This document shows positions 3,804 to 49,512 of a stretch of 50,983 nt of DNA, one piece after another. The position numbers were made by a program, and so were the translations under genes. Where the stretch lies: positions 1-50,983 of the IMG/VR virus record IMGVR_UViG_3300034411_000277; one strand, written 5' to 3'. Position 1 is the stretch's first letter. Each line of letters opens with the position of its first letter. A model generated the notes under the pieces. The model ran no database searches, was not told the DNA's origin, and saw only the letters and a program-made list of their open reading frames with translations. This DNA comes from a virus. Lineage: Duplodnaviria > Caudoviricetes.

Positions 3804-3840
3804 GTCTTGTAAAAATTAGTTGCTACCGACGAGTAAAATG

Positions 3841-3886
3841 ATCTATAAACTGTATAAATCTATATTTATTTATACGATTTATAGAT
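3841..3886 (-). promoter_or_regulatory. Late promoter TATAAATA (3867-3874) inside an inverted repeat upstream of g22
   Basis: Exact consensus; arms 3841-3859 and 3868-3886 give 17 of 19 Watson-Crick pairs. Confidence 0.8.
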
Positions 3887-26002: not shown

Positions 26003-27547
26003 TTAGAATTCCAAAATGATCTTAACGTCTTCTTTTTGGCGTGGGTTCCTAGGCACCAAAGGACGGTTGTCGAGATAGAGAATCTCCCCGCTTTGTTTAT
26101 TTATCTCACTATCAGCGAGACCATTTGTGAACTCAACACCCAATTCAACTGCCTTATTAGCAATTGTAATGGTTGAACCATTGAAGGTTGTATCAATAGA
26201 TCCTAGGAAACCAGAGGTGGATGTAATAGGACTTCCACTAGACTCAAATTGGATCTTTTGACCTGATGTACTAATACCAGCATAGTCCTGGTTATCGTCT
26301 GTAACTGGGTTGAAGTATAGTGAACGGTCTTGGATATACTTGAGAACCTGTGTTTCTTCATCATAAGAAACAACATAGCCCTTAGCCTGACCTTCGACTG
26401 TGGATTGAACGATTACTTCGCCAATCTCAACACCACCACTATTAGATAGAATCTTGATTGAGTTTGCAGATGTGAATGTGTTCTCAGTGAAAACAGTATC
26501 AGAACCACTAATTGTTGGGTTTCTGATCAAACCAATCTGAGCAAACTGAGTGTCGATTGGGAAATCTTGTGTAGAATCGTCAAAACGAGCATACAATAGG
26601 ATCCTGTCTGTACCCAATTCTTCATAGATGTTATAACCGTGCCCTTTAGATGGGGGGATAATAACGTCTAACTTGGCGGCTTTTGATGCGTTAGCATTGA
26701 TAGGACCTAAGTCAACTAGCCCCCAACTATATCCTTTACCACCTTTAGCAACCACGGCATTAGTAATAGTACCGGAGTTGATATCAACAATTGCTTGACC
26801 ACCTTCACCGTCTCCGATGATAGTCATTGCCTGACCGACACCACCAGCATAGCCAGCGCCACCACGGTCAATGTAGATTTGCTTGATTTGGCTATCGTTG
26901 ACTTCTGAGTTACCACTCTCGCGGATAGAAGCGACCTGTGGGTCAGTTGACGTCAACCAGTTACTTGGTACAGTAATATACTCGGTTGAGTCAAACTTGA
27001 TAACGTCTGATGGAGATACTGTAAATAGGTACTTCCAAATGTATCCGTCTCCACTTGAACCGGCTGCGGATGGCTCAGTATCAACGAAAGTGGGTTCATC
27101 TTCTGAACCATTACCTTTGGGGTTAGCACCAGTAGAACCATTACTCAAACAGATATACACTCTGAAGTCACTGTTTACTACGTAGTAGTTTGAGTCATAG
27201 AGCCTAGTTGCTGACGTATTTGGAGATACGTTGAATACACTATAGTCGTCACGATATTGCTCGAAACGAGATCCTTTATTCCAGTCGATACGACGGATTA
27301 CGCGGCGAATGTTGGCGGGAGTAATCCTCCTACCATACATCATCCAGTCGTAACAACTACGAATGTAAGTAAAGTTGTCGATTGGCGCTGGTGGATCAGC
27401 ATTCCAATCGTCTGTTCTACCAAACGCGTTTCCAACGGGGTTTGGTAGTCCTACAAAGATGTAGTATGAGTTATCTGGGTCATTTACTGAGTCGATGAAG
27501 TTGTCAGCATTAAATAGCCTAAATTCATCAGTAATTAGAGCAGCCAT
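26003..27547 (-). CDS. gp8: Baseplate wedge subunit gp8
   Basis: MAALITDEFR, YYVVNSDFRVYICL.NG, DGYIWKYL, G.ILYLDNRP..R...QKEDVKIILEF. Confidence 0.93.
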   Translation of the reverse strand: MAALITDEFRLFNADNFIDSVNDPDNSYYIFVGLPNPVGNAFGRTDDWNADPPAPIDNFTYIRSCYDWMMYGRRITPANIRRVIRRIDWNKGSRFEQYRDDYSVFNVSPNTSATRLYDSNYYVVNSDFRVYICLSNGSTGANPKGNGSEDEPTFVDTEPSAAGSSGDGYIWKYLFTVSPSDVIKFDSTEYITVPSNWLTSTDPQVASIRESGNSEVNDSQIKQIYIDRGGAGYAGGVGQAMTIIGDGEGGQAIVDINSGTITNAVVAKGGKGYSWGLVDLGPINANASKAAKLDVIIPPSKGHGYNIYEELGTDRILLYARFDDSTQDFPIDTQFAQIGLIRNPTISGSDTVFTENTFTSANSIKILSNSGGVEIGEVIVQSTVEGQAKGYVVSYDEETQVLKYIQDRSLYFNPVTDDNQDYAGISTSGQKIQFESSGSPITSTSGFLGSIDTTFNGSTITIANKAVELGVEFTNGLADSEINKQSGEILYLDNRPLVPRNPRQKEDVKIILEF

Positions 27548-27609: not shown

Positions 27610-30600
27610 TTATCCTCGCTTCGAGATTCCTCCCTCGTTTCTCAAGCCCTCAGCGGTCCTGATAATAGTTGGGTAGTTAGCCATATCGGGTGTGAATAGC
27701 TGGTTACCAACTGGGATATCGATTGAGGTCTCAATGTCGCGTGTGATGTTTGCGATTCTACCCCAACTGAAGTGACCTACGTTAGAACCAAGAATATCGA
27801 TCGCGGGATCTGATAGTGGTAACGTATCAACATCAAAGTAGCCAACTCGTGAGAACGGTACGTGATCCCAAATCTGATAGACAGAGTCAATAAATGATCT
27901 ACCTGAACCGACTTGGTTAGCCGCGCTATTGAAGATCGCGGTCACGCCTAAGCCTACGGATGTTCCTCCCACAACAACAAAGTATCCTGGTTGTAGTGCA
28001 TTGAGGTTTCCTTGATCAGAGTCAGTCTTGTAGAAGAATCTGATTCCGTTGCCGATAACCGGTGAGGATCCGTTTGTTCTTTGGATACCAGTGATAATAC
28101 CACTGAATCCTTCAACAATCTCAATACTCTCGATGTCCTCGTAGTCGCCTGTGTTAGTTAGTGAACTTCCCTCAGTTAGAGGTGGCTCAACAACAGTGAT
28201 GAGAGGTGGCTTCTCGGGTAGATATCCAGAACCACGGTTGAGGATAGCTGCGTTCAATACAGAACCTGCTGCGTTGAAGATAACAAGTAACTGACATCTT
28301 CTGGGATCATCAGGTGGTGCGGATACGCCTGGGGGTGGATCGATGTAAACAATAACACCGGCACCGCCTGGTGGATATCCTAAGCCTGGATCAATGATGT
28401 TGACGCTACTGATGAATCCGTCTGGATCAACTACAGCTTCAAGAGATGCTGTCTCAAATGAGCTTAGCTTCTTGTACATCCTGCCCGTAAGACCCCTTAG
28501 TACCACGTCACTTAGAACTTCGCTTTCGTATTCAAAGAGGAATGAGTTGTCTACGAAGATCTCAGTAGCTGCTTTATCAACAGATGCGATGATACTTGAG
28601 TTTGGACGAATGATAGGCTCTAGGCTATCTCTGGTCTTAGGTGCGACTTCACCATAGATGAAGATGTCTCTCTTCTGCTTATCCCACGCAACTTCACGTG
28701 GCTTGACTTCCTCAATATCATTATTACCGAAGTACAAGTTAGTTCTTACGGTATCAGATGAGGCGATCTCAGTAACGGTACGGATGTTCTGAGTCTTGGT
28801 GTCTTCTAGTGCGTCATTCTTCTTGATCTGTAGTTCATCACCTGGGCGGATTGATTCATCAACCTCAGTGACGATACGAGAGTCAACGTTACGCTTACCA
28901 CGGTAGAAGTAGATATCAATATCATCTTCTTTGAATGGTGCTCGTGCGAAGTCGAATGAAGTACCACCGTCGAATGTGTAGTTTAGACCTGGAACTTGTA
29001 GAACTGTGTTGACGAAGATTAGTAGAATAGAATCTAGGTCAATCGCGGATGATTCCTCGTCTGCGGGGTTCTGTTCAAAGGAGAACGGTTCGCCCTTATA
29101 GATTAGTGGGAATCTTGTTCTATCACCATCCTGTAGTCTCTTGACGCTATCGATGTAATCTAGTTCACCGAAGTTCCAAGCTGAGAAGTTATCCGTGAAT
29201 GTCTCAAGGATGGTTACTTGGAATGGCTCAATTGGAGCAGATAGACGCTTGTCCGTTACTAGTCCAACAACTTCAACAACGTCTCCTGGTAGGAATCCGA
29301 AACCTTGGTTGGATAGTTCAAAGTTACTTACTTCAAAGAACTCAGAGCGACCAATCGCGGTTGTCTTAGATGCCCCAACTTCACACGTGATGAATAGGTT
29401 GTTACCAGTTTCAGTACCGAATCCCGTAGATCTTCTGAACACACCCGTTACAGGTAGGTTCGCGTAGTTGGGATCAGGAGCCCAAATGTATGGGTTGGTG
29501 TAACCTGAACCAGGATCAAGGATCGTAAAGTTGGTTAGCTCACCACCAGGACCAGGGATCGCGATGATGGACGCGGCAGTTCCTACGTGACCCTTTTCTG
29601 TGATTCCAATAGAAACAACTGGGAAGTTGTAACCAGAACCAACATTGTTCATTGAGTACTGACCGATTGTTCCGCCATCTACGTAGGTGTGGTCAAATTC
29701 AGATCTACCAACCAATACGCGGAAGTGAGCTGCATCATCTAGGAAGACGAAGGGGAACGCTTCAGCTTTATCTGGGAAGAAGTCTGTATTTAGACCAACG
29801 CTCATTGTTCCACCGTCTACGTATGTGTGTACGATTCCTGGAACAGGACCCACATTCAACTCAACAGTGAAGCTATCTAGAACAGTTTGGATTGGGAACT
29901 CATAACCATTTGTTCCATCAGGGAAGTAACTTGTGGTGAAACCAACGGTTCCAATACCACCAGACACGTATGTGTGCTGGATACCAGGAGCGGCACCCGT
30001 GTTTACAACCAAGGTGGTTAGTGATGGAGTATCAAGGATCTCAAAACGATATCCGTTAGTTCCATCGGGGAAGAATGTTGTGGTGATACCACAGGTTCCG
30101 ATACCGCCGGTTACGTACTCTTGACCGAATGGTAATGTACCAACGCCAATTGTGATCGTGTTTTCGTCTGGTGTGGTTAGAACTGTGAATTCGTATCCGT
30201 CGTTACCTGAAGGGAAGATAGTTGATGTGATACCAACAAACATACTTCCACCGAACTCATACTCGTGCGCGAAGACGTTTCCACCAACGTTGATTTGTAG
30301 TTCTGTTGGTGAGATTACGTTAGTAACTTCAAACTCAGTACCTTCAACTTCTGGTCTTGGGAATACGTTTGATCCAGGTAGACCACCAGAATCGCAAGAG
30401 AATGTTAGATCTTCTAGTCTGATCTTATCACCGGAGAGTCTTCCGTGTGCTCCATCAACTTCTAAGGTGACTACACCTGATAGGTTCGCGTAGTTAGCAG
30501 TAACAATACCCAACTCAGTGAGTGATGTGTTGTTACAGGTGTAACCCAAACCAGTCAACTGAACGGTCTGACCCGTGGAAGTCTTGTGCTCTCCGTCAAA

Positions 30601-33600
30601 TAAGACGGTAACAATACCGGTTGTGTTGTCGTAAGGTGCGTCAAGTACGGTTAGTGTGGTTAGTGAAGTACCAGCACAATCAAACTCAATACCACTTAGC
30701 TGCAAGAAGTAACCATTTTCGCTACCGTGTGCTGCATCAAATGTGATGGTTGAGATACCACTTAGGTCATCATAGATAACGTTAGTGACGTTTAGAGTTG
30801 TCTCGGATGTTCCCGCACAGTCATACTGTAGATCGCGAAGCGTAACTAGGTTACCCGCCACTCTCTTGTGCTGACCGGAAGTCTTGATCGTTACAATACC
30901 AGTCGTCTCATCATATGGAGCTTCAACAACCTTGAGTGATCTGTCGTATCCACCACCTTCTGGGCTAGGGCAACTGAACTCAATTCTATTCAAGTAGACG
31001 AACTCAGGTTGCTGACCGTCTGCTCCAAAGAAGAATGGTTCGTGTCTCTGGAATGTACCGCCACCGATGTATGTGTGGGGGATTCTGATGATACTACCAA
31101 CATCAATTGAGAATATGTTGTCGTTGACGATTGATACAACCTCATAAGCAGGATCCTTATCTGGGAAGATGCTTGTGTTGAAACCAACCGTCGCTTCACC
31201 ACCGAAGTCGTATTCGTGTGGGAAAGGTGAAGGTCCTACGTTACAAGCGAAGACTCTGGATCCTAGGATATCAGTAATCTCAAACTCATAACCATTTGTA
31301 CCATCAGGGAAGATGGTTGTAGTGAAACCAACGAATGCTGTACCCGCGCCTACGTATGTGTGCTCAATGCCGCCGATTGCACCGACATTTACAGTGAACT
31401 CAGTTGCACTTCCAACGGACAATACAACGAACTGATAACCATTAGTTCCATCGGGGAAGACGGTGGTTGTGATACCGACAGTACCGATGCCTCCAGAGAC
31501 ATATGTATGTGGGTATGGAGCAGCACCTGTGTTTACGACAAGTGTGTTTAGTGATGGAGTTTCAAGAATCTCAAACTCATAACCATTTGTACCATCAGGA
31601 TAATTATCGGTTGTGAAACCAACGGTACCAATACCACCGGTTACGTACGTATGAGTGATTCCTGGGATAGAACCAACGTTGATCGTAAGTGTGTTTGGTG
31701 AATTGATGTCTAAGATTTCAAACTCATAACCATTTGTTCCGTCTGGGAAGAAGTTGGTTGTTAGTCCAACAGTTGCAATACCACCAGAGACATAGTTGTG
31801 AACGATGCCTGGGATAGCGCCTACGCTAACTTCCAACTGTGTTGTTGATGGTACGCTTAGAATCTCAAATTCATAACCGTATGTTCCATCAGGGAAGAAG
31901 TTCGTTGTGAAACCAACGGTTCCAATACCACCAGAAACGTAGTTGTGTGTGATTGAACTTGGACCTACGTTTACTGCAAGTCTGTTGTTAGCTAGAACTT
32001 CAATGACTTCAAACTCATAACCATTGATACCATCGGGGTAAGTTGTGGTTGTGAAACCAAGCTTCGCAGTTGCTTGTGAATCATACTGGAAGATGTTTTC
32101 TTCATAGCCTAGAGTAACAGCACCAGATATAAAGGTAGGTGCGTAATAGTTGATGTCTACCTGACCACTACCATAGTAGAAGTGTGGCTCAGATGTTGTA
32201 CCTGCGCCAATAGTGATGATTGTTCCGCCAACACCAGTTACGGATAGAACCTCAAAAGAGCTAGGTGTTACTGGATATGTACTAATACCAGGCTGACTAC
32301 AAACCCACTTGAAGTTGGTTAGAAGCACACTGGAACCAACGGAGACTGAATCAACTGCATCTTGTGTAAGAATAATCTCAACAATACCAGTTAAGTTGTC
32401 GTAATCGGCAGTAACAACACCAGACGAAACGTATGAGCTTTCGTTACTGATCTCAAACGTGGTCGAGTCAACTACGTTTGTGATGTCGTAGAATCTGTTT
32501 GTACCCGTGTAGGAATCATCGAACACCAAACTATCAATACGAACTTGCTCACCCGCAATAATACTCTTGTCGGGGTTGTCGATTGTGATGGTTGTGATAC
32601 CAGAGTCGGTATCAAACTCTGCCGCAATTATGCTTGAAGATCTAGTTGAATAACCAACGTTGATCTCAAATGTAGTTGCATCAATAACGGTAAGAACATC
32701 ATACTCAAAATCAGGATTGACTGGGTATGTTTTTAGCTCAGGTCCAACAGCACAACGGAAGTCGATATTCTCTAGTCTGACCTTTCTACCAACGAATAGA
32801 TTTGCGTTGCTGGTAGAACAACGAACGGTTAGAATACCAGTTGCGTTATTGTATCCAGCACCAAGAACGTTGAAGATGTCTAGTGAATCGGGACAATCAA
32901 ATTCCAAACCACTCAACTGGATTCTGTCGCCAACTTCACTGTCGTGATTAGCTAGGAATGTAAGTGTGGTGATTCCGCTTGTGTTGTCGTATTGTGCGTT
33001 GAATACGTTAAGAGTTGATAGTGACGTGCCTGCACACTCATATTCAATACCACTCAACTGGACGCGACTACCAACAACCTGATTGTGTGGAGCATCCAAG
33101 TCAATGATTGCTCTACCGGTTGTTGCGTTGTATGGAGCATCAACAACGTTGAGTGTGACGAATGAAGTACCTTCGCACTCATATTCAATACCAGAGAGTT
33201 GCATTCTCTCACCAACAGAAGCCAAGTGGTTACCGAAGAATGTGACTGTAGCCAAACCAGTGGTGCTATCGTAAGGAGCATCTGTTACATCTAGTGTGCG
33301 TAGGGATGCGCCATCACAATCAAACTCGATGTCTGATAGTTGGATTCTCCAGCCAGTCCTGCTTCCGTGTGCCCCATCTAATGTTACTGTTGTAATACCA
33401 GTCGTGTAGTCATAGAGTACATCGAGTACGTTGAATGTTTCTAGTGAAGTACCGTTGCACTCATACTCCAACCCACGTAGCTGAACAGTGTCGCTAGGAA
33501 CTAGTGTATGTGGAATTGCAGTCGTGATGGTTACAATACCAGTTACATCATCGTATGGTGCATCTATGATATCAACTGCGTTTAGCTGATAGCTGTTGCA

Positions 33601-36600
33601 GACGTAGTTTAGACCAGTTAGTACAATGCGCTCACCAATCTCACTGTTGTGGGGTGAAGATAACGTTACAGTAACAATTCCACTGACGTGATCGTAAGGT
33701 GCGTTGACTACAGGGATGCTCTCAGTAGATAATCCAGCACAATCAAATTCTAGACCTTCGATGACGACAACGTCGCCTTCATCAAGGTTGATGCTGGATA
33801 GTGATACTGGGGATTCAATCAATAGCTGACCAGAGATGTTCTGGTATGTCGCTACTCCGATGTTGATCTTAGCGGTTGTTGGCTCACCATATGCAGTGAC
33901 GACCATCTCACCAGTCTCGTTATCATAATCAGCGTACTTGATATCGGTAGTTACTCCGATCTGGTTCTCAGTGATAATACCTGTGATTGCACCACCACTA
34001 ACCTCTGCCTCGATTGATGCGCCATATAGAGGAGCATAACCTAGACCAGGAGTTGAACCCAAGGAAACGATTAGACCACCACGTGGGATCTGGTTCTGGT
34101 TTACGTCAAATTCAGATAGAACTTGATCACCATTCTCGGATGTGATACCAGTAAAGATTACTGAGTTGATGCCCGCGACTGGGTTGTATGCGTACTCGTA
34201 GTTGTTACCTTCGTTGTTATCAGTTGTTGGTGTCTGGTAGATATCGTTGATTAGAAGTAGTCCACTTCCATTCTCAATTTCGTTGATGGTGCTACCAGCA
34301 GATGTGAGTGTGAAAGCAGAAGTCTCGCCATCAAATTTGTCGCTGATATCATCGAAGACCGCGATCTTATCATACTCTCTTTGTAGGAATGTTCTCCCCT
34401 GGAAAGATGAGTTGAACTCAACCAAGTTGTTTTCGTTGACTGTAAGAGCACCCTTACCAGAAGGAGCCTCTGTGAAGATAATATCACTTGCAACTAGATT
34501 GTAGGAACCTCTGTAGAGGTCCATAGAAGCGCCCTGAGTGTGGCTAGTCGCGATACTACCTACAACTCCCCTCTCAACACGAATCAACGGTGTTGTACCC
34601 GTGTTATTGATAGGACCCTCAGTACCAGTACCGAAGCCAACGTTATCAATCTTGACGAACTCAGTACCGCCTACTAGTAGTAGATCACCAACTGAGATGG
34701 TACCAATACCAGCCAATGTTAGTAGTTCCTCTGTCTCATCGATGGTCTCATCCAACGTGTAGACCTTATTCGAAGATGTGATAGGAGACTGTAGAACACC
34801 GTCAATTGTGATGACTGTCTTCTCAAGCTTCTGAGACATTTCAAATGTGTGGGCGTTACCAGAACCAATACCGGTGATGATTAGTGCATCTCTGTTGATT
34901 GCATCATCATAAGTACCAGCAACAGAGAATCTGTTGAGGTCTCTCTTGATTGCGTAGACCACATTAGGCATCTTGGTAGTAATACCGATACCTGGGATAT
35001 TGATTGACTGAATATCAATCGCTTCAGATGCAAGTTCTTTTACAGAAGACTCTGGTGTATAGAATAGTCTCTCACCTGTGCTAAAGAAGTGGTCTGGGCT
35101 ATCAATTACGTTGAAGCCATTAGAACCAATATCAATCAAATCAGTAGCAGGATCAATTGTCTTCTGATAGATTGGGATACCTTCATAACGTAGAGGGAAC
35201 CTCACATTGTTTGTTCTCTGCCCGAGAGGAGCAATGAAACGGTCAATGAAGTAGGTTTCTTCTGACTGTGCATAGACTAGGGGAATGTTTCTATAGTTTA
35301 GACTATCAAGGTCTCTATAAATTGTTTCGTTGTAAACGTTAGCTGAGATATTACCACCAGCTAGGTTTGTGTCTGGGTAGAAGAAGAGTACCATATCGGG
35401 ACCAACAACCTCTGCACCGAATGTACCAATACCAGGACCAGGGATGCCGTCACCCTCGGTTATGAATGGATACTCGTTCGTGTATGTTGAACCAGCAGAG
35501 TTTACAAACATCACTTGCTGGATGGTTGCGAATGTATCGTTTCTTAGGTAGACCAAAGATCTAACTGACTGGAACAATCCACTATCGTATCTTGCAAGCT
35601 CAATGGGGCTAGTTACAGGACCTACATTCCTCAAGGAATCTAGAATCAAACTTCTCTCAGTACCAGCAGGGATGTTACCACGCTTGAAACGGTAAGGAGT
35701 TGAGCCTAATGTAGTTTCGGAGAACTCAGTTGACTTGGTAGTAAGTAGGATAGTGCCATCGCTTGTGTTCTGATATTCAACCAATAATACATCAGCACCA
35801 GATACGCTATCAACCTTTACATTGAACTCACCAACAAAATCTTCGTTGACGTTCTTCAACGTGTTACCACTGAAGCCGTAGATCGCCTGGAAGGCGTCAT
35901 CTCTGATGCGGAAGGCATATATCTCAACATAGGATGCTTGATCCCTGGAGTCGATTAGAGTGACCTGTAAGGAGATCGCCTCAATCTGCTCGCTAGATGC
36001 AGTAAATACGATTGCCTGTGATCCACTCTCAATAGATCTCTCTAGACCACCTAGTTGTGCGTTACCAATCTGCTTGAAGCTCTCATCCTCAAACGTGAAT
36101 GAGTTTGTGAATAGCTTTAGGTCAACGTCGAATTCTTCCTGGTCATCAGACGTGTATCGCATTGTATACTCAGTACTTGGTAATGCGATTGCCTCAAAAG
36201 TACCGTAGCCTTTCTCATTATCAGAAACGATTGCCTTCTGTAAGGTGAAAGCATTGTTATCGTAAGTAAGAGCAATAATCTCAGTTAGTTCAACCTGATC
36301 TGTAAATGGGTTTCTTACTTGAAGCAATCCTCTGGTGTAGAGACTGTTGATTACGTTGAAGTCAATGTATTCCTTCTGTGAACGTACGTTATCAGCGTCA
36401 ATGAACTCGTTACTGATATCATCGTGTAATAGAACGCGGTTGGTTCTTACTTCGATGTAGTCAGTTAGTCTCTTGTTAGGAGTCCTACTGTTGAAACGAA
36501 TAGCATTGGTGATGTTATCTCTTACGTTCTGATCGTAACCCAAGTCAAAGTTGTTGATTCTATCAACACGCAATGGGGTTAGTTCAACGTCAGTTAGACC

Positions 36601-39600
36601 GATTAGATCAACTGTGATTGAAGTTCCGGTAGATGATGTGAACGCAATACCAGCAGAACTCTCCAACTTGACGTCGGCAAAGTTTTTCAAGCCAGCAGGG
36701 TGTACCAATCGGTTGATTGGACCGATCATTTCTTCAAATGTAACCTCACTCTTGATAGAGTAAGATAGGTTCTGGTAGTAATCGTTGTCTGGTGTTACCT
36801 GATACTCCTCGTTTAGGAATCCAGTCTGATTGTTCCAACCAGTTGAGATTCTTGATACAGCACCGATTTCAAAACGACACTCAGAACTATCAATAGCAGT
36901 TATGGTTACCGTGATACCACTAACATTACCCTTTAGAACGTCTCCAGGAAGAATGTCGTATCCACCTCTTACCTTGAAGAAGTTGGTGTTTGACTGCTCA
37001 ACAACCAAGTCGGTATCAGCAGCATTACCCAATTCGTCAATGATTGATACGCGCTCACCAACAATCAAGATCGCGGTGTTCTGGTTGACCGTAAACTCAG
37101 GATAGATGTTCTTGTTTACAACAGATGAGAACGCACCCTGGAAAGTTACAGCAACGCCGATGTTGTCGATTGCCTCTTCTGGATACTTGACTCCAATAAA
37201 GATGCGACCGTCTTCAATTCCTTCATCAACAACCTGGAAGAATGAATAACCATAGTCTTCGGAGTTCATATTAGCGAACTCACCAAACTCGGAGATGATG
37301 TTCTCAATGAATACTCTATCACCAACCTCAAAAGGCTTGGTTGCATATCCAAGGATAGGAGTCTGAATACCAAAAGTAACAACACCAACGTTCTGATCAA
37401 TTGAGTTGATTGTTAGAATGGGAATACCGTTACTGTTATTTGTGGTGAATAGCTCGTGTCTGTTCTTAGATAGACCAGAAGGTGCTACGTCAATAATAAC
37501 CTCTGAGATGCCGCTGTTTTGTACAGCGAACTCAATGGATCCACTCTCAATGACTTGACGCGTTACAGCGTCTACTAGGACTGAGTTAGGGGCATTCTGA
37601 TAGCCACTACCACTTGAAAGGATATCAATGCTAGTGATAAAGTCACTATCACCAAATTCAATCTTGGATTGGATGATACCTTTGGGGTTTAGTGTGTTAT
37701 CAGCAGAGTAGGACCAACCTGGGTTCTGGATATTGAAGTTAGCTAGCTTACCGATTGAATCCGACTTAGCTCTCAACGTTGCTGCTGAACCAAACTCACT
37801 ATTGATTGTGATGAACTCAGGAAGATCACTAAAGTTGTCTCCACTAGAAATGATACGAGTATTAGCTACTCCACCAAGTGCGTTTCTAGAAGATGTCTTA
37901 TACTGAATGTCTGCGTCAATAGCAAAGTACTCAGTACTTTCTGGATTATTGTATAAGCTGTACTTGAAAGTATTCAAACCAACGTTTACAATTCTATTAG
38001 AAATGTTGTAGTTACTTTCAATTAGAACAACTGTATTGTTGTTGATTGTGTCTGTATCTGCTGTTGATATGTAACCACCCTTCTCTACACCGTAGTAAAT
38101 GGCAGTTGGGTTGTTGGGTGAGTAGTTGATAGTTCTAACACCATCCTCAAGACCCAATGTTCCAACACCAACGATTGGGAACTCGTCATCAATACCGTTT
38201 GACTCAAAGATTTCAGTTAGAGTCTGATCATAGAAGAACTTCAACTCGTAACCGAGTAGTGATGGATCACTAACGTCAAACTTGATGTTGTTGTTTTTTG
38301 TTACGGCAATCTTAGGATTGACTAGTGATAATGTATGAGTAGAGACGCCAACAGATGTTAGGTCAATAATCAACTCAGAACCAGGCTTAATGTCCTCAAA
38401 GGTCTCAGCAAGCTGGAAGCGGTTACTATCAAAAGGTACAACATAGTACTTCTGATGTAACTCAAGACCACCGACAGATTCAATACCAACACTTGTGTAT
38501 AGGACATAATCACCCAATACAAAGTTGTGAGACTCTATATTGATGATGTTTGCTACTGTATCAATACCGACTGGTTCAACATTCCTTGGGTTAGTGATGA
38601 GTGACTGTGAGATCTCATCAAATAGTAGTGTGACTTCTTTATCAGTACCAACTCCACTATCACCTGTTGGGAGGATTCTCATAGTGATTGCATCACCATT
38701 CTCCAATTCGTGTGGAGTAGCAGTTGTTACAACAGCATCTAGACGCGCAATATTAGCACCCTCAGAATAACGAGTTGTTCTGATGCTGTATGTTGGTAAG
38801 TCTTCACCGCCACCAGGAATGAATACGTTGTTTCCGTCAGCACTTGTTCTAATGCCGATGTAATCTCTTGATAGACGCTCAACAAAGATCAACTGCTCGG
38901 TAGTACCGGTAGATGGTAATGGGGAAATGGTAGTACCATCATCAATGACTAGACGATCATCATCCTCATCACCGATGGAGAAGATAGCTGGCTCAACACC
39001 AACAAACCCGTGATCAGGTGCGAAGATTCTACCAACAGGAATGTCTAGATTATAATTGATATTTCCGATAGAATAAACTGTACCGAATGACTTTCCATCC
39101 GCACCACGCGTACCAAAACCAACAGTTTGTAGGGGATTGAAGTAATAGACTTCATCTAGCTGTGATTCAAACTCAGGTAGAGTTACACTTACATCAAAAC
39201 GATCAGGAATAACATTGAGTTGTGCTCCAATACCAAAGCTAATACCCAATCCAAGTGGACGCAATACTCTGAGTGCTTTGTTTATTGGGAAGATGTTTAT
39301 GATCTCACAACCTTCCGTTGTTAGACCGAAACCAACAACCAAACTAGAACCTACGCTGATGTTATCGGTTAGTGAGTTTACAAAGATGTCTGTATAACCA
39401 GGGAACTGATTTGCCTCCATTGGAGAGAACAGCGTCATAAAGCTGTTGTCTACGGCGATACGCTTTGTTCCACCTAGACTTTCTAATGAAGTGGTTAGAC
39501 CAGAGAATACTACACTGTCGTCATCCAAGTAATCGTGCTTAGGATCAACGTAAACAGATACCGTTGTCTTGTCCTTTCTGACGATTTTAGTAACGTCTTT

Positions 39601-42600
39601 GGTGTACTCAAGCTTCTCGTTGATCACACTAAGGACTTCTTTACCAGTAATCTCACTGATGACTACACTTAGGTTATCTTGCTCCTGGTCAAAGACTGCA
39701 ATCTCACCAATACTGTAACTTACACCAGCACCAATGATATCAATACCATCAACACCACCTTGCTTGATGGTATCAATGATTGCTTCCTGAGTATCAAATA
39801 GGTATGACTGATCTAGGAACTCAGAACCCATAAAAGGATTACCGACAGCATAAGGCTGTGTGTTACGGTAAATGGGCTTATCATTGATGTTGAAGTCTTG
39901 ATCTACATCACCAGATCTGGATCTGATAGGAGCATCACGGAACTTAGGACCAACAAAGTAAGGGAACTGTGGCTCTCTTTCTAGTGACTGTGCATCGGTG
40001 GAGATACCAGCGAAGTATGCATAAACACCGTTGGGGAATTCGGGAGTACGGCAATAGCGACCGTTGTACTCGTCAAGGTCACCATTATCAACATACTTGA
40101 AGTCTTCAACGAAGAAACCAGAAGGATATAGGAACTCAGAAGGACGACCTTCAATAATTGATGGATCTAACTCATAAGCAGTCTTCATCGCTCTGAAGCC
40201 TGAGTTGAAGTTCTCAGGATCATCTAGTGCGAAACCACCATAGATTGGGTTACCGTCATTTGCCCAACCGATGATTGGGGAGTGAGTGAAACCTACGTCA
40301 TTATAAACATTCTCTCTGATTGTTCTATCGTAAGATACGATAGCGTAGTTGTTGTCGATTAGACTCTGGAAACCAAAGCGCTCTTGTAGGTTGACTGATA
40401 GGTCTCTGATACGAGGAGTTAGGATAGCACCGTCAGCAGGATCAACTACAGTAGTTTTTGTAGTCTCTTGCTTGTACCCAAGACCTGGGGATAGGATTAG
40501 TACCTCTTCAATAGAGCCGTCTACAACGATTGCGCGAAGTACAGCACCCTGACCACCACCTTCGGGATCAGTAACGATAACATCAGGGGAGTCTGGGTAG
40601 TTGATACCTTTGGATAGAATTAGGATTGAGATGATCTCACCTTCTACCACAACAGGAGTCAATCTAGCTCCTTCACCTCTAACAGTAGTTACCTTGGGAT
40701 TCTTCTGGAAGTTTAGGATATCAGAACCATAGTAACCACCTTCATCAACATAAGTGGATTCAATCTCACCACGGATGAATGGAGTTGCTGTAATGATACC
40801 AGTTACAGTTGATGCGAAAGATACAACAATATCAACGACAACGTCGGGATACTTTACATTGTGTGTTCCTACACCAGTAGATGTGAAGTTGACGAAATCT
40901 TTGCGATCATAGTCAAACTTGCTAGTACCGCCTATACCCGCGTCAGCGAGCTTGAAGCTGTCGTCGGTGAGTTTCTCTACGTAGTACTGGTTAGAGGTGC
41001 TCAAGCCGCCGATAGACGTCTCTGTGTTGCCGTACTCAACCAATTCACCTGAATTGAATCCGTGCTTGGGATAACGGATCTCGTCATACTCAATAAAGAC
41101 GTTCTCAGGGCGGAACTGCATATTGCGGTAGTAGAAGTCACCACCGTCTTCGATGATTGTAGCACCAGTGATTCTACTCTTAGATAGAGTATCGAATGAC
41201 TGAATACCATAACCATTACCAGTTGAGGTAAATCCAACTGTATTGACACCAGCTCGTAGATCACCCTGTGTTGGGTAGATTCTAATTGTACGTGAGTTTA
41301 GTGGTTCGCAGTAGTAAATACCACCGTCAGCTAGGACGTTTGCTGCACTTCCACTGTTTGTACCACCAGCTCTAGCAATAGAGATACTCTGAGCACCCTT
41401 ACTATTATAAACAATCTCCTCACCAAGTGAGAACTTGTGATCGTTTAGGAATAGGATTGATTCGTCTTCAGCATCAATACCACCACCAAGAGCAACGATT
41501 CTACTATCGAAAGGAACCGAACGACGTCTTCTCTCGATTAGAGGAATAGCAGATGCACCAGGGCTGTTACCACCAACTACACTGATAGAGAATACTTTAT
41601 CAACGTCAAAGTCTTGTGGGTCAATTAGGATCTTTTCTAGCTTACCTTTGATAACAGGGGTTACATAGGCAGTAGAAGGACCAACGGTAGTAGGAGCAAC
41701 TAGTTGTAGATCGGGATCTTCAATAATGATCTCAGGGGGGCTAGTTACGCTGTAACCACGTCCACCAGCAACTGGATCCACCTCTACGATAGGACCAAGG
41801 TATACCTTGCTAGCACCTTTGTAAGATAGAATCTCAACACCATTAGTGAGTACAGCAACAGTACCAGGATCTACTTCTACTGGAGTACGTGAGATGGTGA
41901 TGTTCTGTAATAACTGTGTATCACTAATAGGGATCTTTCTGTAAGTTCTCTGGCTTCTGATCTCTCTACCACTCTGAGTTGCAAGAGTGAAGATGTGGTC
42001 ACCAGGAGAAACTACACCGTTGAATCCAACAGCATTAGTACTACCAATGAAGGAAGGTGAGATGAAGAGGCGGATCTTTCTGGGATCACTCAATACTTCA
42101 ACAAAGTACTCACTGATCTCACAAATCGGAGTGGTTACCTTTGAATTGGTAGTATACCTAATTAGGTCGCCGGTTAGGAATGGTACTGGAGTCTCAAATA
42201 CAAGAGTATTGAAAACATCCTCAAACTTATCAAACTCTTCAAAGTTTGTTGTGGTGATACCAGAGATTACACTCTCAATAACCTCAACATCCATCTCGTA
42301 AGATGGTAGTGAGTTAGTAGCAACATAGAAATTGGAATCATACTCCCTTGCATCATACAAGTTGATGACGTTACTTAGAACAGCATCATTACCATAATCA
42401 ATATTGGTATTTGAACTAGTTGCAAAGTTCTGCTTTCTTCTAATATCAATTAGAGCATTGAGGGGTAGACCAGATGTATCACTAACAGTGATTGTTGCGT
42501 TCAAGAAGTCAACGCTATTTACTACTCTGTTCTCCAAGAGAACTTCTTGGGAGTTTCTGGTCAAGAAGTCAACAAAGTCACCCTCATTGATATATGACTT

Positions 42601-44019
42601 GTCCAAATAGGAAGCATTGATGCTGAATGTACTACCATTCGTCTCAAGTACCTCAAAACGGACACTGGTGTTATAGATGAAGCTGTTAGCAACGATATCA
42701 GCATAATCTTGGGCATCTCTAGTCGCAGTAGCAGGTAGGATGTTCTCTCCCAAGGTATCTACTACAATCTTCTCACCAATGCTGGTGAATGGGACGCCAT
42801 CCTCATCAAAAGAGATATCTGATAGTGTGCCTGTTAGTCTTAGTCTGACTTCTTCACCTTTATCGTTGATTCCGAATACGGTGATATCATCAATGATCTC
42901 ATCTCCGATAGCAATCGTCTTTTCTAGGTCAGAACAAGTAACTCCAAGGAACTGGTTTACAGTCCTTTCCTCATATTTGAAGATTGTGCCGTCTTGGGTG
43001 ATAAATTCGTTATTATCTCTAAAACCAATAGTGGTGTCTACGGTAATTGTAGTATCACCTTGCTTCCACGCCCTTTGTGCCTTGGTTCTGCCGGGAATGG
43101 TGAATAGTTTTCTCTCATTCTTGATTTCGTCATTAGAGACGAATAAGTAGAGTCTGTAATATAGTCTTCCGTCTCTAGTAAACGGCTCAATCTCAGATAC
43201 AGCACCAAATACGCTTACATCGTTGCTTTGGAAGATTGTTTTGCCTTTTAGCTCAGAAGGATTACCTTCGATTGGAATTGCAACAGAGAAATCTCTTCTG
43301 GAATAAGCTGCATCAGAAGATTTGATCAAGAACTGCTCTAGATCAATAACAGTTGGGTCTTGACCGTATAGAACACGGAATAGAATCTCAAATGACTCTT
43401 CACTACCCTTTGTCTGGTAGAAAGAACGTGCTTGACGGATCCAGTTTCCAGTATTGATTTCACTATTGACTTCGATGTTCTCGAAACCAGGAGCAAACGT
43501 AAATTTGATCTTCTCGTAGAACTCTTTTAGGAATAATGTGCTTAGGTTCTTTACAGATGCTTCAATTTCGTGGCTAGCAGCAGTAGTTTGCTCAAAAACT
43601 AGCTCTGCTGGGTTGGATGGATCGGTATAACTGGTGATACCACTAAATCCACGGATAACACCCGTGAATGAATTGGTTGTGATGCCGGTATATGTGAGAA
43701 TTTCGTCATCAACCTTCAATAAACCCCACTCATTTGGAAAGCTTTTAGTGGAATTTACGAATACTACGCTATCTTCCTCGGAAATGGATTGGGTAAGGAA
43801 GAATTCGCCGGAAATGGCTTCGGTTGTAAGGTTAGCTAGGTCAAGATACTGGTCCAAATTGGTCGCGAAGTCCATCGCGCCACCCTGGAACTCCTGGGAG
43901 ACATAAAATTGCTTTAAAAAGTCGTCAGTTAGTGGGGAATCACTTCGAATATACTCTGGAAGTTGGGAAGAGACAATATCCTGAATCTTCACCCTCACAT
44001 CAATACCAGTACCAATCAT
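27610..44019 (-). CDS. gp7: Giant baseplate wedge initiator gp7 (5469 aa)
   Basis: Between g6 and g8; V.SQLPEY...FLKQFY.SQE, FYQTKGSE.SF.ILFR.LYG, DNDYYQNLSYSIKS...LVHPAG.K.F; YHYH-like segment and nested repeats. Confidence 0.9.
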   Translation of the reverse strand: MIGTGIDVRVKIQDIVSSQLPEYIRSDSPLTDDFLKQFYVSQEFQGGAMDFATNLDQYLDLANLTTEAISGEFFLTQSISEEDSVVFVNSTKSFPNEWGLLKVDDEILTYTGITTNSFTGVIRGFSGITSYTDPSNPAELVFEQTTAASHEIEASVKNLSTLFLKEFYEKIKFTFAPGFENIEVNSEINTGNWIRQARSFYQTKGSEESFEILFRVLYGQDPTVIDLEQFLIKSSDAAYSRRDFSVAIPIEGNPSELKGKTIFQSNDVSVFGAVSEIEPFTRDGRLYYRLYLFVSNDEIKNERKLFTIPGRTKAQRAWKQGDTTITVDTTIGFRDNNEFITQDGTIFKYEERTVNQFLGVTCSDLEKTIAIGDEIIDDITVFGINDKGEEVRLRLTGTLSDISFDEDGVPFTSIGEKIVVDTLGENILPATATRDAQDYADIVANSFIYNTSVRFEVLETNGSTFSINASYLDKSYINEGDFVDFLTRNSQEVLLENRVVNSVDFLNATITVSDTSGLPLNALIDIRRKQNFATSSNTNIDYGNDAVLSNVINLYDAREYDSNFYVATNSLPSYEMDVEVIESVISGITTTNFEEFDKFEDVFNTLVFETPVPFLTGDLIRYTTNSKVTTPICEISEYFVEVLSDPRKIRLFISPSFIGSTNAVGFNGVVSPGDHIFTLATQSGREIRSQRTYRKIPISDTQLLQNITISRTPVEVDPGTVAVLTNGVEILSYKGASKVYLGPIVEVDPVAGGRGYSVTSPPEIIIEDPDLQLVAPTTVGPSTAYVTPVIKGKLEKILIDPQDFDVDKVFSISVVGGNSPGASAIPLIERRRRSVPFDSRIVALGGGIDAEDESILFLNDHKFSLGEEIVYNSKGAQSISIARAGGTNSGSAANVLADGGIYYCEPLNSRTIRIYPTQGDLRAGVNTVGFTSTGNGYGIQSFDTLSKSRITGATIIEDGGDFYYRNMQFRPENVFIEYDEIRYPKHGFNSGELVEYGNTETSIGGLSTSNQYYVEKLTDDSFKLADAGIGGTSKFDYDRKDFVNFTSTGVGTHNVKYPDVVVDIVVSFASTVTGIITATPFIRGEIESTYVDEGGYYGSDILNFQKNPKVTTVRGEGARLTPVVVEGEIISILILSKGINYPDSPDVIVTDPEGGGQGAVLRAIVVDGSIEEVLILSPGLGYKQETTKTTVVDPADGAILTPRIRDLSVNLQERFGFQSLIDNNYAIVSYDRTIRENVYNDVGFTHSPIIGWANDGNPIYGGFALDDPENFNSGFRAMKTAYELDPSIIEGRPSEFLYPSGFFVEDFKYVDNGDLDEYNGRYCRTPEFPNGVYAYFAGISTDAQSLEREPQFPYFVGPKFRDAPIRSRSGDVDQDFNINDKPIYRNTQPYAVGNPFMGSEFLDQSYLFDTQEAIIDTIKQGGVDGIDIIGAGVSYSIGEIAVFDQEQDNLSVVISEITGKEVLSVINEKLEYTKDVTKIVRKDKTTVSVYVDPKHDYLDDDSVVFSGLTTSLESLGGTKRIAVDNSFMTLFSPMEANQFPGYTDIFVNSLTDNISVGSSLVVGFGLTTEGCEIINIFPINKALRVLRPLGLGISFGIGAQLNVIPDRFDVSVTLPEFESQLDEVYYFNPLQTVGFGTRGADGKSFGTVYSIGNINYNLDIPVGRIFAPDHGFVGVEPAIFSIGDEDDDRLVIDDGTTISPLPSTGTTEQLIFVERLSRDYIGIRTSADGNNVFIPGGGEDLPTYSIRTTRYSEGANIARLDAVVTTATPHELENGDAITMRILPTGDSGVGTDKEVTLLFDEISQSLITNPRNVEPVGIDTVANIINIESHNFVLGDYVLYTSVGIESVGGLELHQKYYVVPFDSNRFQLAETFEDIKPGSELIIDLTSVGVSTHTLSLVNPKIAVTKNNNIKFDVSDPSLLGYELKFFYDQTLTEIFESNGIDDEFPIVGVGTLGLEDGVRTINYSPNNPTAIYYGVEKGGYISTADTDTINNNTVVLIESNYNISNRIVNVGLNTFKYSLYNNPESTEYFAIDADIQYKTSSRNALGGVANTRIISSGDNFSDLPEFITINSEFGSAATLRAKSDSIGKLANFNIQNPGWSYSADNTLNPKGIIQSKIEFGDSDFITSIDILSSGSGYQNAPNSVLVDAVTRQVIESGSIEFAVQNSGISEVIIDVAPSGLSKNRHELFTTNNSNGIPILTINSIDQNVGVVTFGIQTPILGYATKPFEVGDRVFIENIISEFGEFANMNSEDYGYSFFQVVDEGIEDGRIFIGVKYPEEAIDNIGVAVTFQGAFSSVVNKNIYPEFTVNQNTAILIVGERVSIIDELGNAADTDLVVEQSNTNFFKVRGGYDILPGDVLKGNVSGITVTITAIDSSECRFEIGAVSRISTGWNNQTGFLNEEYQVTPDNDYYQNLSYSIKSEVTFEEMIGPINRLVHPAGLKNFADVKLESSAGIAFTSSTGTSITVDLIGLTDVELTPLRVDRINNFDLGYDQNVRDNITNAIRFNSRTPNKRLTDYIEVRTNRVLLHDDISNEFIDADNVRSQKEYIDFNVINSLYTRGLLQVRNPFTDQVELTEIIALTYDNNAFTLQKAIVSDNEKGYGTFEAIALPSTEYTMRYTSDDQEEFDVDLKLFTNSFTFEDESFKQIGNAQLGGLERSIESGSQAIVFTASSEQIEAISLQVTLIDSRDQASYVEIYAFRIRDDAFQAIYGFSGNTLKNVNEDFVGEFNVKVDSVSGADVLLVEYQNTSDGTILLTTKSTEFSETTLGSTPYRFKRGNIPAGTERSLILDSLRNVGPVTSPIELARYDSGLFQSVRSLVYLRNDTFATIQQVMFVNSAGSTYTNEYPFITEGDGIPGPGIGTFGAEVVGPDMVLFFYPDTNLAGGNISANVYNETIYRDLDSLNYRNIPLVYAQSEETYFIDRFIAPLGQRTNNVRFPLRYEGIPIYQKTIDPATDLIDIGSNGFNVIDSPDHFFSTGERLFYTPESSVKELASEAIDIQSINIPGIGITTKMPNVVYAIKRDLNRFSVAGTYDDAINRDALIITGIGSGNAHTFEMSQKLEKTVITIDGVLQSPITSSNKVYTLDETIDETEELLTLAGIGTISVGDLLLVGGTEFVKIDNVGFGTGTEGPINNTGTTPLIRVERGVVGSIATSHTQGASMDLYRGSYNLVASDIIFTEAPSGKGALTVNENNLVEFNSSFQGRTFLQREYDKIAVFDDISDKFDGETSAFTLTSAGSTINEIENGSGLLLINDIYQTPTTDNNEGNNYEYAYNPVAGINSVIFTGITSENGDQVLSEFDVNQNQIPRGGLIVSLGSTPGLGYAPLYGASIEAEVSGGAITGIITENQIGVTTDIKYADYDNETGEMVVTAYGEPTTAKINIGVATYQNISGQLLIESPVSLSSINLDEGDVVVIEGLEFDCAGLSTESIPVVNAPYDHVSGIVTVTLSSPHNSEIGERIVLTGLNYVCNSYQLNAVDIIDAPYDDVTGIVTITTAIPHTLVPSDTVQLRGLEYECNGTSLETFNVLDVLYDYTTGITTVTLDGAHGSRTGWRIQLSDIEFDCDGASLRTLDVTDAPYDSTTGLATVTFFGNHLASVGERMQLSGIEYECEGTSFVTLNVVDAPYNATTGRAIIDLDAPHNQVVGSRVQLSGIEYECAGTSLSTLNVFNAQYDNTSGITTLTFLANHDSEVGDRIQLSGLEFDCPDSLDIFNVLGAGYNNATGILTVRCSTSNANLFVGRKVRLENIDFRCAVGPELKTYPVNPDFEYDVLTVIDATTFEINVGYSTRSSSIIAAEFDTDSGITTITIDNPDKSIIAGEQVRIDSLVFDDSYTGTNRFYDITNVVDSTTFEISNESSYVSSGVVTADYDNLTGIVEIILTQDAVDSVSVGSSVLLTNFKWVCSQPGISTYPVTPSSFEVLSVTGVGGTIITIGAGTTSEPHFYYGSGQVDINYYAPTFISGAVTLGYEENIFQYDSQATAKLGFTTTTYPDGINGYEFEVIEVLANNRLAVNVGPSSITHNYVSGGIGTVGFTTNFFPDGTYGYEFEILSVPSTTQLEVSVGAIPGIVHNYVSGGIATVGLTTNFFPDGTNGYEFEILDINSPNTLTINVGSIPGITHTYVTGGIGTVGFTTDNYPDGTNGYEFEILETPSLNTLVVNTGAAPYPHTYVSGGIGTVGITTTVFPDGTNGYQFVVLSVGSATEFTVNVGAIGGIEHTYVGAGTAFVGFTTTIFPDGTNGYEFEITDILGSRVFACNVGPSPFPHEYDFGGEATVGFNTSIFPDKDPAYEVVSIVNDNIFSIDVGSIIRIPHTYIGGGTFQRHEPFFFGADGQQPEFVYLNRIEFSCPSPEGGGYDRSLKVVEAPYDETTGIVTIKTSGQHKRVAGNLVTLRDLQYDCAGTSETTLNVTNVIYDDLSGISTITFDAAHGSENGYFLQLSGIEFDCAGTSLTTLTVLDAPYDNTTGIVTVLFDGEHKTSTGQTVQLTGLGYTCNNTSLTELGIVTANYANLSGVVTLEVDGAHGRLSGDKIRLEDLTFSCDSGGLPGSNVFPRPEVEGTEFEVTNVISPTELQINVGGNVFAHEYEFGGSMFVGITSTIFPSGNDGYEFTVLTTPDENTITIGVGTLPFGQEYVTGGIGTCGITTTFFPDGTNGYRFEILDTPSLTTLVVNTGAAPGIQHTYVSGGIGTVGFTTSYFPDGTNGYEFPIQTVLDSFTVELNVGPVPGIVHTYVDGGTMSVGLNTDFFPDKAEAFPFVFLDDAAHFRVLVGRSEFDHTYVDGGTIGQYSMNNVGSGYNFPVVSIGITEKGHVGTAASIIAIPGPGGELTNFTILDPGSGYTNPYIWAPDPNYANLPVTGVFRRSTGFGTETGNNLFITCEVGASKTTAIGRSEFFEVSNFELSNQGFGFLPGDVVEVVGLVTDKRLSAPIEPFQVTILETFTDNFSAWNFGELDYIDSVKRLQDGDRTRFPLIYKGEPFSFEQNPADEESSAIDLDSILLIFVNTVLQVPGLNYTFDGGTSFDFARAPFKEDDIDIYFYRGKRNVDSRIVTEVDESIRPGDELQIKKNDALEDTKTQNIRTVTEIASSDTVRTNLYFGNNDIEEVKPREVAWDKQKRDIFIYGEVAPKTRDSLEPIIRPNSSIIASVDKAATEIFVDNSFLFEYESEVLSDVVLRGLTGRMYKKLSSFETASLEAVVDPDGFISSVNIIDPGLGYPPGGAGVIVYIDPPPGVSAPPDDPRRCQLLVIFNAAGSVLNAAILNRGSGYLPEKPPLITVVEPPLTEGSSLTNTGDYEDIESIEIVEGFSGIITGIQRTNGSSPVIGNGIRFFYKTDSDQGNLNALQPGYFVVVGGTSVGLGVTAIFNSAANQVGSGRSFIDSVYQIWDHVPFSRVGYFDVDTLPLSDPAIDILGSNVGHFSWGRIANITRDIETSIDIPVGNQLFTPDMANYPTIIRTAEGLRNEGGISKRG
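29656..33948 (-). repeat. Nested half-domain repeat array in gp7
   Basis: Runs of A halves (V..A.YD..TG..T.T....H....G..V.L.G.E(F/Y).C) followed by equal-length runs of B halves (T..FPDGTNGYEFEI......L.VNVG.....HTYV.GG); 33-nt perfect repeat at 31276-31308 and 31567-31599. Confidence 0.9.
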
Positions 44020-48522: not shown

Positions 48523-49512
48523 TTACTCAAAGAAACTGGTGAGCGTCCCCTGACTGTTAAGCTCTTCTACGCCCTCCGTAGCTAATCTAATACTATCTGG
48601 GTTAATGTCCATGGTAACGCAATTTCTTCCTAAAGAGTACGCGGCAATAGCTGTAGTACCTGATCCACAGAAAGGATCTAAGACCCAACCATCTGTAGGG
48701 CAAGAAGACTTGATGATTCTCTCTAATAACTTCAAAGGCTTCTGTGTGGGATACTTCCTCTTATTAGCTTCTGAACGAGATATAAAGTATACATCATCCC
48801 AGAGGTTCTGAACGGGTACTCCCTTACTCTCATCCAAGTAGATCTTCTTATATAAGTTATTGCTACCAAAGTGTATCCTCCCGTCTGCATCCAGCCCTGC
48901 GAGCATCTCCTCACTGATACGGAAACCATATACTGGATTGTACCCTTTATACTCAAAGCGGCGACAAGGGCGACTCTTCTCTCCAGAGACCTTAGCGAGA
49001 GCATAGAAACCTTTAGAGTCCTTATTCTTAAAGGAATTCTTTTCATACTTAGCATCTAAGTCAGTATACTCAACCTCAAAGTAAGGGGAACCTTTACGGA
49101 GTACCATAATGGAATCTACGATATTACCCCAACCATTCTTGATATTATTCTTAGGACCTGAACGCTTCCAAGAGATATTCGTGTAATAACACCGACGAAT
49201 CTCTTTGGGTAGTTCAGCAAGTACAAGTGCATTACCTTCGAAGTTATTATGCAAGTACATCCAGCTATTCTTATTCATTTTAGACCAAGCAGACTGGATG
49301 ATATCTGCATACCACTCGATGTACTCCTCAAAGCTGTTCCACTGGTCCTGGAAGCCCTTCTGAGTGCCGTCTTCCTCTACCATGGTGAAATCCCTCATCA
49401 AACCAAACGGAGGGTCCATATAGACCATATCGAAGCTCTCAGTGAGTGTGCTGATTTCCTCTGCTGGTTGCTGAATGATCTTAGAGACAGGCATAGGGAG
49501 AGACTCATTCAC
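48523..49512 (-). CDS. Site-specific DNA amino-methyltransferase, beta class (N6-adenine or N4-cytosine)
   Basis: Motif IV YMDPPF near the N-terminus; YPTQKP..LLERII and motif I VLDPFCGSGTT near the C-terminus. Confidence 0.93.
   Translation of the reverse strand: MNESLPMPVSKIIQQPAEEISTLTESFDMVYMDPPFGLMRDFTMVEEDGTQKGFQDQWNSFEEYIEWYADIIQSAWSKMNKNSWMYLHNNFEGNALVLAELPKEIRRCYYTNISWKRSGPKNNIKNGWGNIVDSIMVLRKGSPYFEVEYTDLDAKYEKNSFKNKDSKGFYALAKVSGEKSRPCRRFEYKGYNPVYGFRISEEMLAGLDADGRIHFGSNNLYKKIYLDESKGVPVQNLWDDVYFISRSEANKRKYPTQKPLKLLERIIKSSCPTDGWVLDPFCGSGTTAIAAYSLGRNCVTMDINPDSIRLATEGVEELNSQGTLTSFFE

Follow-up and report, generated by a model that had tools for sequence, protein, structure and literature searches.

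How do the repeats of a protein pair when their first and second halves stand in separate runs along one chain? The question is raised by a T4-like cyanophage, record IMGVR_UViG_3300034411_000277, which was analysed over a stretch of 50,983 nucleotides (nt), referred to here as the window. An array of such half-repeats is confined to a single open reading frame (ORF) on the minus strand, 27610..44019, which encodes a gp7-like baseplate wedge protein of 5,469 amino acids (aa). A preliminary description of the sequence had proposed that a first half (A) and a second half (B) together form one domain resembling the FCCH barrel of E1 enzymes, that the halves pair in mirror order like balanced brackets, and that two arms stand on one base domain. 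This core inference passed all discriminating tests but two weak ones and is supported, and the nested tree as an architecture can be accepted with little doubt. The region as a whole is probably one 1,434-residue insertion in gp7, made of 15 nested FCCH-like barrels up to 11 levels deep and arranged in two arms, which likely projects as a host-contact appendage of adjustable length.

The insertion (aa 3356-4789; 29653..33954, on the minus strand like all parts of the array) occupies one loop of gp7, as judged by alignment to the gp7 of phage S-SRM01, and holds 15 copies of a ~95-aa module: a base domain (D0), arm 1 with ten copies (D1-D10) and arm 2 with four (D11-D14). The depth along arm 1, from D0 through D10, is 11 levels. 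The array opens with the first hairpin of D0 (aa 3356-3379; 33883..33954), recognized by a partial A match of 21 bits and by the orthologue pattern a[AB]cB. In the outbound part of arm 1 the sequence parse finds the A halves of D1-D7 (aa 3384-3709; 32893..33870), all seven terminating in L/I-x-F/Y-x-C, from Cys3427 to Cys3709. After a tip of 274 aa (aa 3714-3987; 32059..32880) the chain returns through seven parsed B halves, from D7 down to D1 (aa 3988-4325; 31045..32058), whose mirror order comes from similarity, orthologues and a structure model. The third strand of D0 with Cys4350 (aa 4326-4350; 30970..31044), a piece continuous with the D0 B half in the gp7 of ACG-2014f and S-CAM7, stands between the arms. 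Arm 2 comprises the parsed A halves of D11-D14 (aa 4358-4542; 30394..30948), terminating at Cys4401 to Cys4542, and the B halves of D14 down to D11 (aa 4547-4741; 29797..30381), which are covered by four concentric model ranges. The B half of D0 (aa 4742-4789; 29653..29796), again from the parse, closes the array, and D0 is split in three pieces. All coordinates first given for the runs of seven A, seven B, four A and four B halves check, and the count of 15 copies over ~1430 aa is borne out as 1 + 7 + 3 + 4. The tip was correctly located but is not a separate domain, since it parses as three further copies, one inside the other: D8 (A 3714-3756, B1 3762-3791, B2 3973-3987), D9 (3794-3862 and 3958-3972), which is compact and without a Cys neck, and the contiguous D10 (3865-3957), with model ranges for D10, D9 and D7. 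A similar correction applies to the proposal that every copy sits in the post-Cys loop of the previous one: this holds for 11 of the 14 nested copies, but D1 lies between strands 2 and 3 of D0, and D9 and D10 lie in the B-half loop before the last strand.

At the DNA level the A halves are spaced by 141 nt and the B halves by 144-147 nt, at 60-86% identity to a reference copy, and the halves are 30-75% identical among themselves. The A/B pattern is not due to chance, because the two profiles gave 0 matches of at least 13 bits on 20 shuffled proteins, against 14-69 bits for the halves in the window. An assembly artefact was ruled out: relatives at 86% and 63% identity have an identical order of halves, and overlapping contigs of run X15, which comes from a study other than that of run X1, cover the entire stretch. 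Single-base differences at 31843, 32424, 32713 and 33154 from contigs of runs X1, X15 or X18 represent strain variation within the array. Joints seen in public contigs (one contig of 151 bases at depth 2 that skips 1,990 bases, others having sides of 21-30 bases) were too thin, probably derive from related phages matching the repeat, and were not used. A Pfam search of the array gave nothing useful (DUF1905, 22.9 bits, below cut-off), an initial locus scan, for which the arm-2 protein served as query, found zero relatives, and a search through bacterial and archaeal genomes yielded 0 loci, which is weak evidence for absence from cells.

The gp7 orthologues offer a natural series of the same insertion. 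S-SRM01 gp7 aligns with its aa 1-3316 to aa 1-3348 of the window protein and with its aa 3310-3695 to aa 4782-5167, with nothing between; since only the two flanks align, the entire array is a single insertion in a gp7 loop. Among 34 gp7 relatives in which both flanks were found, 2 are empty at this site; in 11 of the other 32 the four quarter-motifs occur exactly equally often, the rest being noisier parses. Insertion lengths at this site form a ladder of 0, 202-204, 297, 409, 501, 595 and 688 aa, with an arm 1 of one to six levels. The 202-204 aa form, of pattern a[AB]cB, occurs in ACG-2014f, S-CAM7 and two contigs, and the five longer forms have an arm 1 of two to six levels. Arm 2 has 0, 4 or 6 levels in orthologues; for example, the arms have 2 and 4 levels in L052 and 1 and 6 in P0028. 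Over all relatives, the window included, arm 1 ranges from 1 to 10 levels and arm 2 from 0 to 6. That D0 brackets both arms, as had been claimed for an outer copy, is supported mainly by the 202-aa form, in which the D0 Cys joins the B half directly; two arms on one base domain are likewise supported by orthologue comparison, in which D0 hosts them in two separate loops. Short arms retain the first A and the last B halves (P0037 reads A~D1 A~D2 B~D2 B~D1), that is, the basal levels, so that gain and loss of levels take place at the tip, which is what mirror pairing demands. Divergence is greatest in the tip copies. The bracket order, the empty S-SRM01 site, the stepwise arm lengths and the retention of basal levels are thus demonstrated by comparison of sequences, and the pairing of D0-D5 and D8 would follow from orthologues together with coevolution.

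Some relatives depart from this simple series. In L067 (P-SSM2 gp7) and P0050, the site is occupied by 1,069 and 2,887 aa in which the module is mixed with more divergent barrel-like repeats that are poorly parsed by the profiles, and in L069:8327-13716 (S-SKS1) the gp7 gene is annotated in pieces and the site is empty. P0058 was considered as a case of arm 1 transferred to another protein family, but this was rejected, P0058 being a gp7 fragment.

If halves are nested, A and B should balance, and equal counts across homologues had been suggested as a check. In 177 proteins, which gave 78 distinct A/B strings, counts were exactly balanced in 34 strings and within one in 67; fragments were retained in this set, and split halves under threshold count as -1, the window protein included. 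Strings whose running count is never negative numbered 52 of 78, where shuffles would give 10.9, and the correlation between A and B counts is 0.986. Among held-out proteins, 37 of 90 qualified (array not at the protein end, four or more halves), with 21 exactly balanced and 32 within one. A grammar in which a complete domain may stand in any of four loops needed fewer edits to parse each of 27 hand-picked proteins than it needed on average for 8 shuffles, and for 26 of them fewer than for the best shuffle. Four different loops of the module accept insertions; the fourth, which follows the FP motif, carries side branches at several levels in P0040, P0044 and P0046.

The module also extends beyond gp7. 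It is present in proteins of S-PRM1, S-SCSM1 and S-CAM9 annotated as tail fibres. A separate non-gp7 family, L002:6760-19266 (S-CAM7 gp208, P0005) and P0004-P0033, has about 3,100-4,300 aa and up to about 35 module copies in several balanced trees, the first of which reads AAAAAAAABBBAABBABABABBBABBABBB (15 domains); the first 290 aa of this family are common to S-PRM1 gp156 and other tail-fibre-type proteins. In P0081, aa 771-833 give a phycobiliprotein-like match (PF00502, 25.5 bits, cut-off 22.2) inside the ~335-aa gap of a split B half, and P0072-P0078 have the pattern AABAb-335-bB; from the PF00502 match, the barrel loops seem to host other folds too. P0135 and related AABB proteins combine a two-level nest with a CBM_5_12 carbohydrate-binding module (52 bits) in one chain.

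Coevolution bears on which B half belongs to which A half. Pairing statistics for the window protein (couplings, similarity and level-matching) were computed on its cluster representative P0001, which differs from it by a few residues. With couplings learned on lone AB units only, mirror order scored above parallel order in 54 of 71 nested blocks of less than 60% identity (p 1e-5), and it was the best permutation in 46 blocks against 25.8 expected. Non-leaf mirror pairs display the strand ladders A21-B31, A23-B29, A26-B49 and A44-B8, with A17-B40 common with leaves. When non-leaf pairs were examined for the couplings of leaves, the mean z of the top 20 leaf-derived pairs was 1.92 in mirror order, 0.59-0.71 in parallel order and 0.80 when shifted to the parent. 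The reverse direction (top 10 pairs) gave 2.00 for mirror versus 2.19 for parallel; the two are not separated there because the parallel set retains pairs of near-invariant residues. In P0001, the similarity between A halves tracks that between their mirror-partner B halves (r 0.62, rank 672 of 120,960), compared with r -0.15 for parallel partners.

AlphaFold models of the arms add a structural view, pairing being read from the residue ranges to which solved single barrels align. In the arm-2 model (arm 2 plus the D0 B half, 437 aa, 17 sequences; predicted local distance difference test, pLDDT, 69; predicted template modelling score, pTM, 0.34), 50 barrel matches were obtained: 36 on residues 145-244 (D14), 2 on 97-291, 6 on about 50-341 and 5 on about 1-390. 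One is a poor extended match; the other 49 fall on four concentric ranges, and none is parallel. The last B half, that of D0, whose partner was not included, stays unfolded. Matches in the arm-1 model lie on 509-606 (D10), 439-618 (D9), 313-684 (D7) and 264-737 (D6), as the parse had predicted beforehand, and no parallel pairing range occurs among the 150 fold matches listed. The mirror contacts for which structure prediction had been proposed as a check are therefore predicted for D6, D7, D9, D10 and D11-D14, and the outer part of arm 1 slips by one step. Mirror-order pairing is borne out jointly by these ranges, by coevolution and by balanced relatives; that A and B make one intact domain was also supported, in that A+B superposes on a single solved barrel and a lone B half is unfolded.

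The fold can be assigned with confidence from the models as an FCCH-like, six-stranded barrel. The top match is the FCCH domain of UBA1 (residues 215-295; Z 10.5, root mean square deviation (rmsd) 2.0 over 80 residues), with Z 9.3-10.5 and rmsd 2.0-2.6 across models, followed by the phi92 and K1F endosialidase barrels (Z 8.3-9.2; 9.1-9.2 for phi92) and the tail protein of phage FCWL1 (Z 9.0), and next by flavin-binding reductase barrels. The predicted barrel is closed and antiparallel as in E1 FCCH (PF16190), the strand ladders also come from coevolution, and the nearest named Atlas cluster is the viral E1_FCCH cluster (score 0.92). The likeness to E1 FCCH holds as fold but not as Pfam membership: neither the window region nor D14 alone matches PF16190 (gathering cut-off 29.5 bits), and the relatives P0014 and P0069 fall below it at 29.1 and 29.3 bits. 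In addition, the module has a neck, C...FP...G.S..H.Y.GG, and the matched solved examples are single and contiguous. A sequence search of solved structures gave nothing (best E 0.52), and in a Foldseek search of the PDB no match had an E of 0.001 or lower.

The neck draws attention to the joints between domains. The Cys at the A end (97%) and the His of H.Y..GG (96%) are near invariant, lost together and form the top coupled pair, although profile-based selection may inflate these two figures. The frequency of the His of H..G..V.L is 85% where a child is the only one, 63-69% for the other children and 35% in root domains; in the window this His occurs in 10 of 11 post-Cys children and in 0 of the 3 copies inserted elsewhere. 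The parent loop beside the parent His couples to the child segment beside the child His (B38-A32, z 5.1), and the joint spacings of 15 and 12 residues are conserved. Since the child His follows post-Cys insertion and B38-A32 are coupled, a Cys-His-His site at each joint, possibly a metal clamp, may be put forward tentatively. Against it, leaves keep the Cys and His at 95%, D13 has Gln for His although its child has the His, and the direct coupling of child His to parent Cys is weak (z 2.1). An intein-like or catalytic role of the Cys-His-Ser cluster was considered and is supported by no profile match.

The mechanism proposed is simple. The ends of the barrel adjoin and several of its loops would tolerate a whole second barrel; the chain would leave along the first halves and come back along the second ones, and two of its segments are predicted to pass through each joint. 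A complete inner block being contiguous, a single insertion or deletion would change the number of levels and leave the brackets balanced; growth and loss would then proceed by single contiguous events on inner blocks at the tip, and the gain of a lone half would produce an unfolded orphan. Folding would close from the tips inward to D0. In T4, gp7 is present in six copies per baseplate; by that stoichiometry six such trees may project outward, one from each wedge, and could provide reach and weak multivalent binding to the host surface. An accessory role of the arms in host contact is somewhat favoured, the site being dispensable, its length variable, and the same module occurring in the tail-fibre-annotated proteins. 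According to the available part of PMC12632334, a sialic-acid binding site that influences host range lies in the barrel of the K1F endosialidase.

Several observations weigh against this reading as a whole. Shared fold is no demonstration of function, and profile searches recognised no binding or enzyme domain at the arm tips. Exact balance fails in 44 of the 78 strings, many being fragments or having sub-threshold split halves, and P0050 (+10) is not balanced by the module alone. The similarity comparison of A-A with B-B (Mantel-type), repeated over 35 relatives, was neutral (18 of 35), and in the window's own arms the coupling energies rank mirror order only 1,544 of 5,040 and 10 of 24. The arm-1 model (1,000 aa, 14 sequences) is weak, with pLDDT 60 and pTM 0.26; it leaves the D2 A half and the D5 B half largely unfolded, does not have D1-D5 and D8 in the expected register, and in one match, 171-878, joins D4 A to D3 B, so that mirror order is slipped by one step in a region of pLDDT <50. 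This slip is suspected to stem from the gapped alignment of shorter relatives. The models cover D0 in part. The arms had been described as rigid, to which the pTM of 0.34 for arm 2 lends no support; with pTM at 0.26-0.34, the inter-domain angles are not predicted.

The points on function leave room for an alternative that accepts the tree and reads it as a structural spacer or docking scaffold, for tail fibres or between wedges, with no host binding. This is a serious contender, if a less probable one than host contact. The tips end in the same barrel, the conserved joint spacings would suit a ruler, and FCCH domains decorate the exterior of siphovirus tail tubes with no binding role stated in the accessible portion of PMC13576161. 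On the other hand, arm length and branching vary freely among close relatives, the site can be empty, and the tip copies diverge most, so that an accessory surface role fits better than fixed docking. A second alternative concerns the pairing itself: with halves so alike and an arm-1 model that slips, B halves might pair between gp7 chains or in a shifting register (domain swapping among gp7 copies, or a slipped mirror), giving an interlocked net rather than six separate trees, and recursively inserted HABAS domains are domain swapped in some cases according to the available part of PMC11515920. This is improbable, since parent-shifted pairing carries less coupling than strict nesting, orthologues retain level-specific partners, and the slip sits where pLDDT is <50. 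That A and B are short repeats independent of each other, each in a tandem run of its own, or that they pair in parallel, is hardly credible even though each run resembles an ordinary DNA tandem repeat and the cross-relative similarity test is neutral, given that no fold match listed is parallel, A+B superposes on one barrel, a lone B half is unfolded, counts stay balanced and parallel pairing loses the coevolution signal.

The nested tree is carried by a gene that can be named. The array-bearing ORF is cyanophage gp7, because its flanks match phrog_2885, its relatives are annotated gp7 and its gene order agrees. The phrog_2885 profile (baseplate wedge subunit) scores 3,826 and 606 bits on the two non-repeat flanks, and the C-terminal part matches 97 phage records (Synechococcus 82, Prochlorococcus 12, marine virus 3), many labelled baseplate wedge initiator or gp7. 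The structural block runs gp25, gp6, the array gene, gp8, and then neck, sheath, portal and capsid genes; the upstream neighbour is a gp6-like baseplate wedge gene (44036..45964, minus strand; PF21379, phrog_219) and the downstream one a gp8-like baseplate wedge gene (26003..27547, minus strand; PF09215, phrog_438). The position between gp6 and gp8 is likewise that of gp7 in ACG-2014f, S-CAM7, S-T4 and S-SRM01, and the order gp25, gp6, gp7, gp8 is shared with T4-like cyanophages. Outside the array, identity to the gp7 of S-SRM01, S-CAM7 and ACG-2014f is 37-57%; these hold 0 or 2 modules at the insertion site, whereas the window gp7 holds 15. Elsewhere in this protein, aa 1246-1339 form a YHYH domain (PF14240, 73 bits) present in most gp7 relatives, and further barrel-like H-x-F/L-x-x-G-D/E motifs without Cys neck occur at aa 861, 986, 1770, 1831 and 2977 (about 41440, 41065, 38710, 38530 and 35090), the pair at aa 1770 and 1831 being perhaps a second small nest. 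A DNA methyltransferase gene (48523-49512, minus strand; PF01555, 127 bits) lies just upstream of the baseplate genes.

Recursive self-insertion has already been published for Si3, an insertion in RNA polymerase beta' (RpoC2) of cyanobacteria, which the accessible parts of PMC13114784, PMC10895346 and PMC11515920 describe as recursively inserted SBHM/HABAS domains, eight domains at six levels with bifurcating nodes. In both systems, as far as those texts go, one domain family is inserted repeatedly into itself, its domains are discontinuous, and an elongated arm stands in a loop of a host protein; the bifurcating nodes have predicted counterparts here in D0 with its two arms and in the branching at several levels in P0040, P0044 and P0046. 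The differences are in size, eight domains and six levels versus 15 and 11, and in location, the trigger loop of RNA polymerase beta' versus a phage baseplate protein. As to fold, Si3 (8emb) matches the arm-2 model with a Foldseek probability of 0.06, compared with Z 9-10.5 for FCCH-type barrels, although a weak match does not prove different folds. Si3 appears from the same sources as an enzyme component that varies little (8-10 domains), whereas trees of the window type vary in shape among close relatives and belong to a virion protein. The endosialidase barrels of phi92 (4hiz) and K1F (1v0e/3ju4) resemble the module at rmsd 1.9-2.2 over about 80 residues, also on a virion surface protein; there, however, one copy at 11-14% identity stands beside a catalytic propeller, and the array has no catalytic domain. 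No report of nested domains in virion proteins was found in the literature searched, which took in few subscription journals, and the available part of PMC12801897 has nothing on the subject. The novelty of the array lies in its greater depth, its apparently different fold, its virion host and the natural series of tree shapes.

A broader possibility, for now speculative, is that cyanophages may build single-chain protein dendrimers by a kind of grammar, using a self-inserting barrel whose four permissive loops allow any depth or branching pattern (from 0 to at least 33 copies), with joints locked by metal (parent Cys and His, child His) and with reach and valency tuned by one-step gain or loss of blocks. 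Almost all known repeat proteins are tandem, whereas here a branched tree is encoded in one virion chain, about twice as deep as the six levels of the deepest case that the available part of PMC13114784 gives for a survey of 2.7 million classified domains. With relatives that form a natural series of trees of different shape in a single place, the array makes it testable how a chain folds when as many as 1,400 residues, with near-identical decoys among them, separate the halves of a domain, and by which steps insertion architectures grow. It would serve as a natural template for branched single-chain scaffolds, and it offers a structural reading for the very large baseplate and fibre proteins of marine cyanophages that lack annotation.

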